From a virus (taxonomy: Duplodnaviria > Heunggongvirae > Uroviricota > Caudoviricetes): a DNA stretch of 41,547 nucleotides. The position numbers were made by a program, and so were the translations under genes. Where the stretch lies: positions 1 to 41,547 of the IMG/VR virus record IMGVR_UViG_2529292882_000020; one strand, 5' to 3'. Below, one piece after another: positions 5,061 to 35,637 of the stretch (the first letter of the stretch is position 1; the number at the start of each line of letters is the position of its first letter). The notes under the pieces were generated by a model. The model searched no databases. It was not told the DNA's origin and worked only from the letters and a program-made list of their open reading frames with translations.

Positions 5061-5423
5061 TTAACGACCTGCTGCGCGGAGTTTTCCGTCAGGTTCACCG
5101 GCAAGAGTCAGTAACTGTCCCTGGTCTTCCTGCAGAATAGTCAGGCGACCACCGCGATTGACATACATCGGCGTTTCGGTGGTGTCTTCTTCGGAAATTT
5201 TCCCGCGGTTAGTCGGGCGAACATATGAGAGTTTGTGTTTGATTTTCACACGGTTCTCATCAAATGGTTCGATTTCCAGGTTGAGTGAGACCTTACCTTT
5301 GGTTTTCGTGTTCATCACACCGGAAGCGACTTAACTGAGAACTGCGCCGATTTTGGTTTCAAATACGCCGCCGTCCAGCTCCCCGATAAATGCCTGCACA
5401 TCAGTACTGCGTTCGCTAGCCAT
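5061..5423 (-). pseudogene. yfdP-like early gene interrupted by in-frame TAA (codon 31)
   Basis: ATG at 5423 with GAGGAG RBS; 30 codons then TAA (5331-5333); same frame continues into the 85-aa ORF 5061..5318; read-through length would be 120 aa. Confidence 0.5.
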
Positions 5424-5471
5424 TTTGCTGCTCCTCATCATATCGACCCTGCAAGGCCGATTAGTTTCTCC

Positions 5472-5560
5472 ACAAAACAGAGAAGAACACCTGCGGTGGC
5501 AGCCGCCCGGATGGATTGGGTTATGAGCCCGTCGTCCGGTGATGCTCTTCTCTGTTTTGT
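5472..5560. repeat. perfect 15-bp inverted repeat (ACAAAACAGAGAAGA / TCTTCTCTGTTTTGT) closing a 59-nt GC-rich loop
   Basis: seen directly at 5472-5486 and 5546-5560; lies in a 5424-5860 stretch with no credible ORF. Confidence 0.6.
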
Positions 5561-5861
5561 AAAAAGGACGGTACCAGCCGGAAGCAAGGGTACAAACTGG
5601 TACCGCCAGGACTACATACAGCATAAAGTTGTGGTGCCGGGTGCCTCCCGGTGCCTGGCGAAGGTTGCACACCAGACGGGTGGGTATCCACAGAAGGTCG
5701 ACTGTCAGCCTCAACCTTAACCCGCGTGCGCTGAGCCGCATTCACCACAACGCTAAGGATTCTCTTTGGTTGAAAATACTTAGCTGTTATGTGCCTGTCT
5801 TTTCACCACTTCAGGCTCGGTGGTATCTTGGTGTTTTCATATAGCCAAGAAGGAAATAGTT

Positions 5862-6053
5862 ATGACCAAAGAAGAAAAAATTCTTTATTTATTCCAACTA
5901 TCGGTTAAGACTCACACTGCATATCAGACTGCTGCCATGACATCAGATAAAAATTACAGTACGTCAGAAAACCCGATAGACGACATAAGCAAGCTTTACG
6001 ATAAGTTCGAAGCACTACTCGATAAAAAGTTTGCTGAGGCTGGGCTTGAGTGA
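5862..6053 (+). CDS. small hypothetical protein (63 aa)
   Basis: ATG at 5862 preceded by AAGGAAA; AT-rich; 3' end overlaps the convergent ORF 6015..6221. Confidence 0.3.
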   Translation: MTKEEKILYLFQLSVKTHTAYQTAAMTSDKNYSTSENPIDDISKLYDKFEALLDKKFAEAGLE

Positions 6054-6221
6054 TTGTTGAATAATCGACAAAACCCAACTTAAATTTTCGTCAGTGGGCT
6101 CGATGCCATGTGCGGTGAGCTCACTTTTCAAAACTCCAAGTAATTCAGAGCTGATTTTCAATATATCTGCTTGATTTCTAACTATTCCCACTTTTTCCTC
6201 CCTTGGTCTACGCGCGGTCAT
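6015..6221 (-). CDS. small hypothetical protein (68 aa, or 58 aa from GTG at 6191); first ORF downstream of putative pL
   Basis: N-terminus MTARRPREEK is Arg-rich; internal AGGGAGG + GTG alternative start; occupies the position N holds in lambda. Confidence 0.3.
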   Translation of the reverse strand: MTARRPREEKVGIVRNQADILKISSELLGVLKSELTAHGIEPTDENLSWVLSIIQQSLKPSLSKLFIE

Positions 6222-6399
6222 GTTTTACGCCCAAACGACTTCACAGTTATTGTTTAAAATCTGGACTTTCATTTCATACACCTGCTTTAACATGAGTGCC
6301 TGGTGGCACAACATGACTCAACGAATCATCCTAGACTTCATATGCCCCAGGCGGCTACTTCGTGGGCGTCCTGCCTGTTCGTTATCTTTGATATAAAAT

Positions 6400-6413
6400 C
6401 TAACTTAACTTAG
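6400..6413. promoter_or_regulatory. putative OL operator half-site pair (CTAACTTAACTTAG) within a leftward TTGCCA-17-TAGATT promoter
   Basis: same CTAAG-N4-CTTAG-type palindrome as the two sites between cI and cro. Confidence 0.4.
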
Positions 6414-6478
6414 TTATTATGGCAAGAGAAAACACCAAACTTTTCTTAGTTCGGTGCCTTAGTTAGAGAAGAGAGGTC

Positions 6479-7105
6479 TTAGAGTTCGTATTGAACTCCT
6501 TTGACTACACCAATGATAAGGCAATTACCATTGATAGGGATGTTGGGATACCGAGGATTTAATGGCACTAAAAACTTTTGAGGGCCATCGATGACTAATT
6601 TTTTTACTGTAGCTTCGTTTGTTCCATCAAGTCGAGCGATGACTATTTTTCCATGACGAGGTTCTGCATCTGGATCTACAATCACTGTTGCGCCTTCTGG
6701 TATTGTTGGGAGGCCATTAGGGTTAGTCATGGAGTCACCTTTAACCTCTAATGCAAATGAGTTATCACCAATCTTTAGTGATGTATCTACCCACTTGTCC
6801 ACTTCACTAAACACTTCTGCTGCCCTGCACTCAGTAAACTGCCCAGCCTGAACCCACGATATTACAGGAACTCTGCGCATGTTTGTGACGAGTTTGCCTT
6901 CAAACTCAGCACCATAAAGAATGTAATCTATTGACGTATTGAAGAACTTCGCTAATTTCGAAAGTGCCTCCCCACCAGGGGTATTGATGTCTTTCTCCCA
7001 GTACCCCACAGCAACGTCGCTTACTCCACAAAATTTACCCAATTCTTTCTGGGACGTTCCGGTAACTCTTCTCAGAGCTTTTATACGCTGACCAACCGTT
7101 TCCAT
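6479..7105 (-). CDS. cI: CI-type repressor (XRE HTH + S24 LexA-like autopeptidase domain)
   Basis: 208 aa; N-terminal HTH (TSQKELGKFCGVSDVAVGYWE), C-terminal GDSM...KK Ser-Lys dyad region; divergent from cro. Confidence 0.85.
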   Translation of the reverse strand: METVGQRIKALRRVTGTSQKELGKFCGVSDVAVGYWEKDINTPGGEALSKLAKFFNTSIDYILYGAEFEGKLVTNMRRVPVISWVQAGQFTECRAAEVFSEVDKWVDTSLKIGDNSFALEVKGDSMTNPNGLPTIPEGATVIVDPDAEPRHGKIVIARLDGTNEATVKKLVIDGPQKFLVPLNPRYPNIPINGNCLIIGVVKGVQYEL

Positions 7106-35222: not shown

Positions 35223-35637
35223 GCCATTCAATATCGGGTGCTGTTGACGTATCAACACGCATCAGCAGCACACGGTATTTCTTCCATTCGGTGAGAATTG
35301 AAGTTTCTTCATCAGTTGCGATACCAGCATCAACAGCATCCTGACGCCAGGATATTTCACTGTCAGCTTTTGCACGAAATGTGGCTTTCATGTTTTCTGC
35401 ATCTGATATTTTCTGTTCTGGTGAAAGCGGCGGCTCATCAACCCATGCAAGAGCCCCTGAAACCATTCCCAGCATTTTTCCTGTTGGCTTATTTCCCCCA
35501 TTAAATCTGACAGCATCCTCATCGCTGATTTCAATACCATCCTGCGGCCATGTCCCCTCCTTGATATAACTTTCATATAGCGCTGCGTTGTAGATTGCAT
35601 TTTCGGACGGGCTGTAAACACTTTTAACTTTATTCAT
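35194..35637 (-). CDS. alternative tail fibre assembly chaperone (inverted orientation)
   Basis: 147 aa; C-terminal ...VDTSTAPDIEWPTPPAAQAR mirrors the plus-strand chaperone. Confidence 0.65.
   Translation of the reverse strand: MNKVKSVYSPSENAIYNAALYESYIKEGTWPQDGIEISDEDAVRFNGGNKPTGKMLGMVSGALAWVDEPPLSPEQKISDAENMKATFRAKADSEISWRQDAVDAGIATDEETSILTEWKKYRVLLMRVDTSTAPDIEWPTPPAAQAR

Follow-up and report, generated by a model that had tools for sequence, protein, structure and literature searches.

A structured non-coding block in the early-left leader of an e14/SfV-type lambdoid prophage, a probable equivalent of the DicF small-RNA locus

What is carried by a GC-rich stretch of about 430 bp that lies in the early-left leader of a lambdoid prophage and holds no credible open reading frame (ORF)? 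The block in question occupies positions 5424-5860 of IMG/VR record IMGVR_UViG_2529292882_000020, a stretch of 41,547 nt that was analysed whole (the window). A sequence-only reading had noticed a perfect 15-bp inverted repeat here and had proposed a tL-type terminator cluster, a nut-like antitermination structure or an unannotated small RNA (sRNA), without naming the transcribed strand. We report the anatomy of the block, its non-coding nature and its homology to the STnc100, PasD and DicF loci. In our judgement it is probably, though by no means surely, the DicF-locus equivalent of e14/SfV-type lambdoid prophages, that is, a non-coding sRNA cassette in the pL leader, read from the minus strand. 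It most likely gives rise to an sRNA of the DicF/PasD type that ends at a built-in terminator, between two conserved folds, a pseudoknotted domain and an initiator-tRNA-like junction; the 15-bp repeat turned out to close the second of these, a separate three-way-junction RNA. Below, coordinates in descending order follow the minus strand.

Is the structure of the block real? The perfect 15-bp inverted repeat (ACAAAACAGAGAAGA, 5472-5486; TCTTCTCTGTTTTGT, 5546-5560) is present and extends to 25-nt arms with 84% complementarity and 39 nt between the arms. By our own estimate, 41.5 kb should hold by chance about 0.004 perfect 15-bp inverted repeats whose arms lie at most 100 nt apart. GC content rises to 0.55-0.58 in the block, as against about 0.42 in the flanks. 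Predicted for both strands, the fold of 5440-5800 has -155 kcal/mol and z = -6.6 relative to shuffles on the minus strand, and z = -4.0 on the plus strand. The hairpin of the 15-bp repeat alone (5465-5565) has -51 kcal/mol and z = -7.8. Because of these z-scores and the 0.004 expected repeats, the repeats and folding of the block are beyond chance.

Two further repeats had been read somewhat differently from what is there. The second pair is indeed a perfect 9-bp inverted repeat (CGGTACCAG, 5569-5577; CTGGTACCG, 5597-5605), but it adjoins the first repeat rather than being nested in it; the pair GGTACCAG/CTGGTACC lies where it had been placed. The letters of the supposed direct repeat (CCGGGTGCCT / CCCGGTGCCT, 5637-5656) are present, but they are really a minus-strand hairpin, CCGGG-AGGCA-CCCGG (P5 below), together with its flanks.

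Could the block be the remains of a protein-coding gene related to K-12 ymfH or PHROG 3651? Annotations do point that way. PGAP calls a pseudogene, a 'frameshifted hypothetical protein', at 5438-5748(-), the homologous stretch of E. coli K-12 is annotated as YmfH, PHROG 3651 matches a plus-strand ORF in the block with an E value of 2e-49, and the SfII annotation has a 112-aa ORF. However, these rival ORF calls fall on opposite strands, and ST64B has no ORF across the whole region. In comparison with the ST64B homologue, 65 substitutions are distributed 24/23/18 over the codon phases without periodicity, and six of the seven indels (1, 22, 9, 2, 11, 1 and 2 nt) are not multiples of three, while the variation is accounted for by compensatory base pairing. 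A coding gene was rejected on the codon-phase and indel statistics. The block is non-coding, as had been supposed from the lack of a credible ORF, and a degraded gene is scarcely credible.

The transcribed strand follows from the surroundings. On the minus strand, the gene order is a cI-like repressor gene, pL, a short ORF, the block, and then yfdP-yfdQ-yfdR...xis-int. Because of this order, the block belongs to the early-left leader and is sense on the minus strand, which is the direction of pL in an e14/SfV-like prophage. A promoter scan gave a candidate pL (TTGCCA-17-TAGATT, 6397-6425(-)), just downstream of the cI-like gene and that gene's terminator. The block lies about 620 nt downstream of this candidate, and a pL transcript would carry it. 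Other immunity types have different promoter sequences at the same position relative to a conserved 5′ leader.

The first domain on such a transcript, module 1 (5628-5751(-)), is a pseudoknotted core of the STnc100/PasD superfamily, in a variant that we call GCGGC-type. Helix P1 pairs GUUGUGGUG (5751-5743) with CACCACAAC (5636-5628). Next to it, a junction AAU (5742-5740) leads into the P2 hairpin GCGGC-UCAGC-GC(A)CGC (5739-5724). Helix P4 joins 5676-5670 to 5660-5654, and the P5 hairpin (5651-5637) has a 3′ strand that continues directly into the 3′ strand of helix P1. A pseudoknot is formed between AAGGUUG (5718-5712), just past P2, and CAACCUU (5667-5661) in the P4 loop.

The family assignment comes from an Rfam covariance search and from sequence hallmarks. 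The sole Rfam match in the block, on the minus strand and below the gathering score, was STnc100 (RF02076) at 5773-5558(-), covering the model from end to end (positions 1-206) with 39.6 bits (E value of 7e-7 in a 1.1-kb search and 2.6e-5 for the whole window). The hallmarks of STnc100/PasD are all present at 5751-5628, namely the closing helix P1, the GAAU junction, P2 with a UNNGC loop, and the 22-nt motif CACCGGGAGGCACCCGGCACCA, of which the window and more than 120 IMG/VR contigs carry exact copies.

Covariation was found for every helix, including the pseudoknot. In 26 diverse members, 90.7% of the cells of P1, P2 and P5 are paired, compared with 38-51% when the partners are slid; eight pairs show compensatory changes, and the covariation score was reached by none of 500 shuffles. 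P4 was left out of this MAFFT alignment count, as loop lengths shift the columns, and was scored by a custom script only. The pseudoknot is a feature defined in the present analysis, and its control was restricted to P4 loops: in 31 diverse members, the strand pairs with its own P4 loop over 6.84 bp on average, against 4.77 bp with other members' loops and 4.46 bp with shuffled loops. Its duplexes have 24 distinct sequences across the 31 family members. The pseudoknot is also found in phage P1 (UGGUUAU/AUAACCA) and in the K-12 Qin prophage (CAGUUAA/UUAACUG), where the P5 stem shows a compensatory change, CCUGG/CCAGG. It has no counterpart in the Rfam STnc100 model, and the preprint that links STnc100 to PasD gives RNAalifold consensus structures only (bioRxiv 10.64898/2026.05.13.724894). 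A family-wide pseudoknot appears not to have been described previously.

Members of the family differ in location and promoter. Typical members, those of the 'CCCCC-type', follow Q genes, methylase genes, tRNAs or stx, and precede lysis genes. GCGGC-type members occur in early-left leaders, in the ban operon of phage P1, where tciA follows after 30 nt, and in K-12 Qin, where dicB comes next. An own sigma-70 promoter, often directly before the core, was seen in 34 of 72 late-operon copies and in 0 of 12 GCGGC-type copies, which fits production of the latter from pL; for the window copy, neither the promoter scan nor a stricter scan of our own found one. STnc100-like cores with intact pseudoknots lie between dicF and dicB of K-12 Qin (L235, 2447-2587) and before tciA of phage P1 (L005, 2502-2626), with no terminator before the gene.

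Relatives of the core are known as stable RNAs. PasD of enteropathogenic E. coli (EPEC), a relative of STnc100, is a Northern-validated sRNA with Hfq-dependent stability (PMC8550237; bioRxiv 10.64898/2026.05.13.724894), and relatives have been validated as Hfq-dependent RNAs of about 200 nt. The Northern size of PasD equals the RNA-seq prediction, the five Pas sRNAs span 80-240 nt, and all of them are described with a 3′ terminator stem-loop.

Module 1 is followed by a single-stranded linker of 22 nt, UUUAUGCUGUAUGUAGUCCUGG (5606-5627(-)), which aligns with the DicF 5′ end, UUUCUGGUGACGUUUGG, and is kept in loci with different module-1 variants. By this alignment, the linker would be the counterpart of the 5′ (seed) region of DicF. 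A probable RNase E entry site, AAC|UUU, is suggested within it by DicF biogenesis (PMC9438474).

An intrinsic terminator comes next (5561-5605(-)). Its stem pairs CGGUACCAG (5605-5597) with CUGGUACCG (5577-5569), and its tail is UCCUUUUUAC. The stem has 11-12 bp in the minimum-energy fold, and our own terminator scan of the window returned it as GGCGGTACCAGT...GCTGGTACCGTC + CTTTTTACA. With a strong hairpin at 5605-5569, U5 at 5565-5561 and a place in the early-left leader, the tL-type terminator that had been proposed is borne out. In relatives, its position is constant but its stem sequence is replaced (ST64B, L136, L146). A terminator lies a median 26-30 nt past the core in 71 of 84 unique family members; in the window, the hairpin begins 25 nt past the CACCGGGAGGCACCCGGCACCA motif.

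Of the 68 columns in the alignment with DicF, 47 are identical in the linker and terminator. Conservation covers the core UGGCGGUAYCAGUUU and the tail CCG.CCUUUUU, but the 5′ seed has diverged. Judged by this alignment, the window terminator is very probably homologous to the DicF terminator, GGCGGUAUCAG...CCGCCCUUUUU. On the Rfam DicF model, the linker and terminator of the e14 copy score 28.5 bits (E value of 3e-4), and K-12 DicF itself scores 76.7 bits. The proposal of an unannotated sRNA is supported by homology, through the 39.6-bit STnc100 match and the DicF alignment, both of which stay below gathering scores.

The Qin locus of K-12 is built alike: a module-1-type domain comes first, then dicF, then a GCGGC-type STnc100-like core (34.1 bits, E value of 1e-5), and last dicB. 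DicF is made solely from the pL-like dicBp transcript, no internal promoter having been found, and its 53-nt form is produced by RNase E and an intrinsic terminator, while a 190-nt form owes its 5′ end, and a 72-nt form its 3′ end, to RNase III (PMC5069750; PMC9438474). By our own coordinate arithmetic, each of these two RNase III ends would lie at the 5′ base of a P1 helix, one in either flanking domain. The 190-nt DicF precursor would therefore match STnc100 and PasD in build and in size. This shared architecture of the DicF, STnc100 and PasD loci appears not to have been described before.

Downstream of the terminator lies module 2 (5467-5565(-)), the three-way-junction RNA closed by the 15-bp repeat (5560-5546 / 5486-5472). 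The closing stem extends to 25 bp, and with G-U pairs it reaches into the U-run of the terminator (5565-5561 / 5471-5467); on the other strand these G-U pairs would be A-C mismatches. Arm A (CCGGA, 5539-5535 / UCCGG, 5511-5507) holds a conserved 21-nt loop, ACGGGCUCAUAACCCAAUCCA (5532-5512), and arm B is the hairpin GCGG-CUGCCA-CCGC (5506-5493). Within the loop, a stem-loop GGG-CUCAUAA-CCC (5518-5530) presents CAU at 5525-5523. The 14 nt CGGGCUCAUAACCC are identical to the anticodon stem-loop of the E. coli initiator tRNA-fMet.

Module 2 is conserved as a structure. In 17 representatives, 92.8% of the cells are paired against 37-52% when slid, seven pairs are compensatory, and the score was reached by none of 500 shuffles; the three G-C pairs of the GGG/CCC stem are invariant or G-U. 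More than 120 IMG/VR contigs carry the loop pattern. A U-run stands directly upstream of module 2 in 108 of 120 loci, and the gene after it is usually yfdP or a homologue. Thus, in comparison with relatives, pairing is conserved with compensatory changes in both structured domains across many phages. Module 2 has no Rfam match, and an initiator-tRNA-like junction RNA of this kind appears not to have been described before. A tRNA gene was rejected: between 5200 and 6300, the Rfam tRNA model (RF00005) gave no hit even at E values up to 10 and ARAGORN was negative, and both tools were negative for both folds at the window and Klebsiella loci.

A compact module 2 was observed 6 nt past tRNA-Asn, tRNA-Thr or tRNA-Arg genes in the late region of ten loci (L127 at 1509-1586, L131, L137, L138, L152, L154, L158, L159, L162 and L171), of which only L127, Klebsiella phage vB_Kpn_Chronis, comes from an annotated record. 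A closing stem of 6 bp and then ACCA or GCCA give it the end ...CAGGCC-(A/G)CCA. These traits hint at a tRNA-like RNA that lacks a D arm and carries CAU as its 'anticodon'.

How might the cassette work? The steps below, including transcription from pL, the efficiency of termination, the RNase cuts, Hfq dependence and targets in trans, are modelled on the characterised loci. Transcription from pL (starting at about 6390) would make the pseudoknotted domain (5751-5628) first, then the 22-nt linker, and then the terminator with a 3′ end at about 5565-5561. Part of the transcripts would stop there, and the terminator hairpin with its U-tail would form the usual Hfq-binding end; if DicF and PasD are a guide, this terminated RNA would be the precursor of an Hfq-type sRNA. 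Cutting by RNase III at the base of the P1/H0 helix (H0 is described below) would give a long form of about 195 nt, as for DicF in Qin, and cutting by RNase E in the linker would give a short form of about 67 nt (5627-5561), which could base-pair in trans with a seed unlike that of DicF. Read-through polymerases would go on to transcribe module 2 and yfdP-yfdQ-yfdR...xis-int, and therefore the terminator would double as a tL1-like gate on the delayed-early left genes. The 25-bp stem of module 2 is a plausible RNase III site for parting the leader from the yfdP...int message. In K-12, e14 genes including 'ymfH', which covers the e14 block, are induced by DNA damage (PMC11228462).

Several results weigh against this reading as a DicF-type cassette. 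The window copy reaches the gathering score of neither Rfam model, with 39.6 bits against 47 for STnc100, and 14.2 bits (E value of 5.1) against 48 for DicF (RF00039). The seed is UUUAUGCUGUAUGUAGUCC in the window and UUUCUGGUGACGUU in DicF. With the translation start region of ftsZ, the window RNA reaches a duplex energy of -32.0 kcal/mol, which 62% of shuffles match in a crude test; in the same test, DicF reaches -38.5 kcal/mol and 12% of shuffles do as well. Targeting of ftsZ was rejected, since the complementarity is not above that of shuffles. Cores without a terminator directly upstream of phage P1 tciA and K-12 dicB point to a function of the core's own, and the core, with 22 invariant nt and a pseudoknot, would seem to be conserved far beyond the apparent need of a processing scaffold. 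Nor does the phage have an N gene, boxA or put by which RNA polymerase would pass the terminator; a 5′ leader element (6320-6383(-)) is a candidate for the read-through role.

The most serious rival takes up the points on the core. It holds that the STnc100-type core and the initiator-tRNA-like junction are autonomous RNAs that act by protein binding or tRNA mimicry, the terminator and sRNA being secondary; their partner could be, for example, a processing enzyme, the ribosome, methionyl-tRNA synthetase (MetRS) or RNA polymerase, or they could be decoys for an anticodon nuclease. The invariant 22 nt and the covarying pseudoknot persist in otherwise diverged copies, and the core stands without a terminator before tciA and dicB, as said. 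The strand topology of the core, with P5 running into the 3′ strand of P1, is tRNA-like, the module-2 loop matches the initiator-tRNA anticodon arm, and the CCA-ending Klebsiella module 2 lies 6 nt past a genuine tRNA gene. Moreover, a 'ymfH' clone, which spans the RNAs, triggered the retron-Sen2 toxin when overexpressed. Yet neither fold is accepted as a tRNA by ARAGORN or by the Rfam tRNA model, the E. coli module 2 has its 25-bp closing stem and no CCA end, and the 'anticodon' loop of e14 is a drifted UUAAUAA. The retron effect has been ascribed to a protein, and any partner molecule is hypothetical. We consider autonomous folds unlikely. Transcription punctuation only, meaning a tL1-type terminator flanked by end-protecting hairpins with no trans-acting RNA, would explain why the terminator keeps its position while its stem is replaced (ST64B, L136, L146) and why the element precedes the first delayed-early gene; besides, a pL-dependent RNA would be absent from a repressed lysogen. 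However, end protection needs neither an invariant 22-mer nor a covarying pseudoknot nor a conserved 21-nt loop, and the closest characterised loci, DicF and PasD, yield functional or Hfq-bound sRNAs, which leaves punctuation only a slim chance.

The block might instead be a cis-acting signal for processive antitermination against downstream terminators, a put-like RNA or a nut-like site, as the family stands at the start of long operons (early-left, late, phage P1 ban), usually just before a terminator, and as the phage has no recognisable N gene or boxA. A nut site was rejected: a search of 5400-6500 for boxA (CGCUCUUA / GCUCUUUAACAA) with up to three mismatches found none, and no N gene is recognisable in the leader. 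HK022 put was rejected as well, as putL and putR gave no covariance-model hit and no convincing alignment with the block. The earlier suggestion of a nut-like structure finds no support in these results. Moreover, the block lies about 620 nt from pL and not at the transcript 5′ end, members in late operons occur alongside several types of Q gene, and the Northern size of PasD and the 3′ stem-loops of the Pas sRNAs suggest that the adjacent terminator works. On reading the sequences, no alternative pairing of the core with the variable terminators was seen. Antitermination is thus highly unlikely. A riboswitch-type attenuator was also rejected: the core stays constant among relatives whose terminator stems are wholly different, and the 5′ half of the terminator showed no alternative pairing with the core.

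Other features surround the DicF-type cassette. Upstream of module 1, a hairpin H0 was read from the sequence at 5746-5791(-), with CAUAAC-A-GCUAAG (5791-5779) facing CUUAGC-GUUGUG (5757-5746). Its 3′ strand overlaps the 5′ strand of helix P1, and the two pairings would be mutually exclusive. H0 appears to be a 12-bp remnant of a larger 'module 0' of relatives. In four other early-left leaders (L149, L142, L135 and L145), an extra domain lies ~100-300 nt upstream of module 1. The pair ACACAACGAUGAGAGCA / UGCUCUCUUCGUUGUGG closes it, its hairpins look like the T-arms of tRNAs (GGUUCGAUUCC), and its 3′ strand overlaps the 5′ strand of P1. Tandem STnc100-type units were seen in late regions, 484 bp apart in L021, L038, L052 and L072, 275 bp in L125 and 922 bp in L014. 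Each unit consists of a promoter-like box, a core and a terminator, and the units flank moron genes such as a nanS-like esterase.

The window is a lambdoid prophage adjoining tRNA-Thr (1369-1444), the sole tRNA that ARAGORN called in it. A tested kilobase is 100% identical to a prophage of E. coli MS 69-1 and about 99% identical to Shigella phages SfV and SfII, and ST64B has the same synteny at 77% identity. The LexA-family repressor, the cI-like gene (6479-7105(-)), has its counterpart in the 100%-identical MS 69-1 prophage as WP_000848748.1, the same protein as YmfK of the K-12 e14 prophage.

The conserved 5′ leader element of about 64 nt (6320-6383(-)) starts about 10 nt after the pL start and reads AACGAAC-AGGCAGGACGCC...CCUGG-loop-CCAGG-AUGAUUCGUU. 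Among 52 distinct sequences, the element is found behind at least eight different promoter/operator (immunity) types. Three of its helices show compensatory changes, and Rfam has no match for it; it is placed much as HK022 putL is, but folds in another way. In some phages (L106, L113, L019, L045 and others), a hairpin and then GCUCUUUAACAA come just past this element, in a boxB-boxA arrangement of the rrn type that the window lacks, and an N gene is not obvious in them. Phages alike in other respects may differ in early-left antitermination.

Two small ORFs lie between pL and the block, 5862-6053(+) (PHROG 2605) and 6015-6221(-) (PHROG 15476). They are convergent with a 39-nt overlap, and PHROGs gives no known function for these leader ORFs. 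The one on the plus strand would be antisense to transcripts from pL, and SfV has a different 98-aa orf33 at the position of the two.

Past module 2 come a small hairpin, UCGGCC-UUGCAG-GGUCGA (5460-5443(-), 6 bp), and the Shine-Dalgarno sequence GAGGAG (5436-5431(-)) of yfdP. At the hairpin position, mEp460 has CGACC/GGUCG, a G-U pair being turned into A-U. yfdP itself (5061-5423(-), start codon 5423-5421) is annotated from the identical MS 69-1 record. Its codon 31 is an in-frame TAA (5331-5333(-)), which PGAP flags as an 'internal stop' in that record, and SfV orf32, of equal length, is annotated as intact. As the first gene past the RNA block, yfdP is either a pseudogene in the window prophage or dependent on stop-codon read-through. 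K-12 CPS-53 has kept yfdP and lost the entire block. Elsewhere, 35243-35432(-) gave a sub-threshold match to IS009, another prophage-associated RNA motif in Rfam (52.4 bits against a gathering score of 117, E value of 2.8e-9).

How widespread are these RNAs? Among 5426 complete E. coli genomes, the window-type core occurs in 1841 and module 2 in 2492. Both are also found in active phages (SfV, SfII, SfIV, ST64B, mEp460, cdtI and Stx2c phages). They are annotated as nothing or as conflicting hypothetical proteins, K-12 'ymfH' among them. An earlier BLAST survey did not find DicF-like RNAs in functional phages (PMC5069750), but on the present reading they do exist there. Literature searches on ymfH and xisE sRNAs turned up no RNA at the block position.

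In K-12 e14, the stretch called 'ymfH' (L234, 2508-2819) holds an STnc100-like core in slight decay, a linker and terminator like those of DicF, and a variant of module 2. K-12 ymfH is probably not a protein gene, and the triggering of the retron-Sen2 toxin by a ymfH clone in a published screen could be an RNA effect. It would be one if a wider proposal held, namely that the early-left leaders of many lambdoid phages are assemblies of autonomous RNA modules (the 5′ leader element, the domain with T-arm-like hairpins, the STnc100-type pseudoknot and the initiator-tRNA-anticodon junction) whose role goes beyond framing an sRNA. There, the pseudoknot core and the tRNA-fMet-like junction would be tRNA-like ligands or decoys for targets such as VapC-type anticodon nucleases, RNase P/III, MetRS or the ribosomal P site. 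We regard this proposal as doubtful.

Seeing the block as an RNA cassette removes one spurious gene family. It also joins DicF, STnc100 and PasD, which were described separately, in one architecture of pseudoknot domain, seed linker and terminator, and it offers a concrete model for cutting sRNAs from pL or pR′ transcripts. With the invariant pseudoknot core and the initiator-tRNA-like loop, there are specific sites to mutate when asking whether phages turn tRNA-like leader RNAs against functions of the host.

How does the block compare with known systems? It shares with HK022 put that it is a non-coding structured RNA in an early lambdoid operon without N, upstream of terminators. However, put is a two-stem V shape right after the promoter, whereas the block is a multi-helix pseudoknot about 620 nt downstream, and relatives of the block accumulate as terminated RNAs, unlike put. 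Like lambda tL1, the block has an intrinsic terminator gating the delayed-early left genes; unlike lambda nutL, its leader has no boxA, boxB or N gene. Module 2 differs from tRNA genes in lacking a D arm and, in the E. coli version, in its long closing stem without a CCA end, and it gives no Rfam match to C4, one of the tRNA-like phage RNAs (C4/CI) that RNase P processes.

The closest systems are the prophage sRNA loci. STnc100/PasD and the window copy have in common the closing helix, the GAAU junction, the UNNGC loop of P2, the exact 22-nt 3′ motif, and a linker with terminator. They differ in the P2 stem, CCCCC/GG(N)GGG in STnc100 and GCGGC/GC(A)CGC in the window, and in location, as STnc100/PasD lie after Q in the late region whereas the window copy lies in the early-left leader, at its distance from pL and with no promoter of its own. 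DicF and the window RNA both lie in a pL-like early operon just past the immunity region of a lambdoid prophage, lack their own promoter and end at an intrinsic terminator. Both also have an upstream domain closed by a GUUGUGG/CCAC..CAAC-type helix and an end of GGCGGUAYCAG...hairpin plus U-run. In contrast, the window terminator stem is fully paired and longer than that of DicF, the STnc100 'GCGGC' domain is upstream of the sRNA region in the window but downstream of dicF in Qin, and the downstream partner is module 2 with yfdP in the window but dicB in Qin. The element belongs, as a variant, within the DicF and STnc100/PasD prophage sRNA cassettes.

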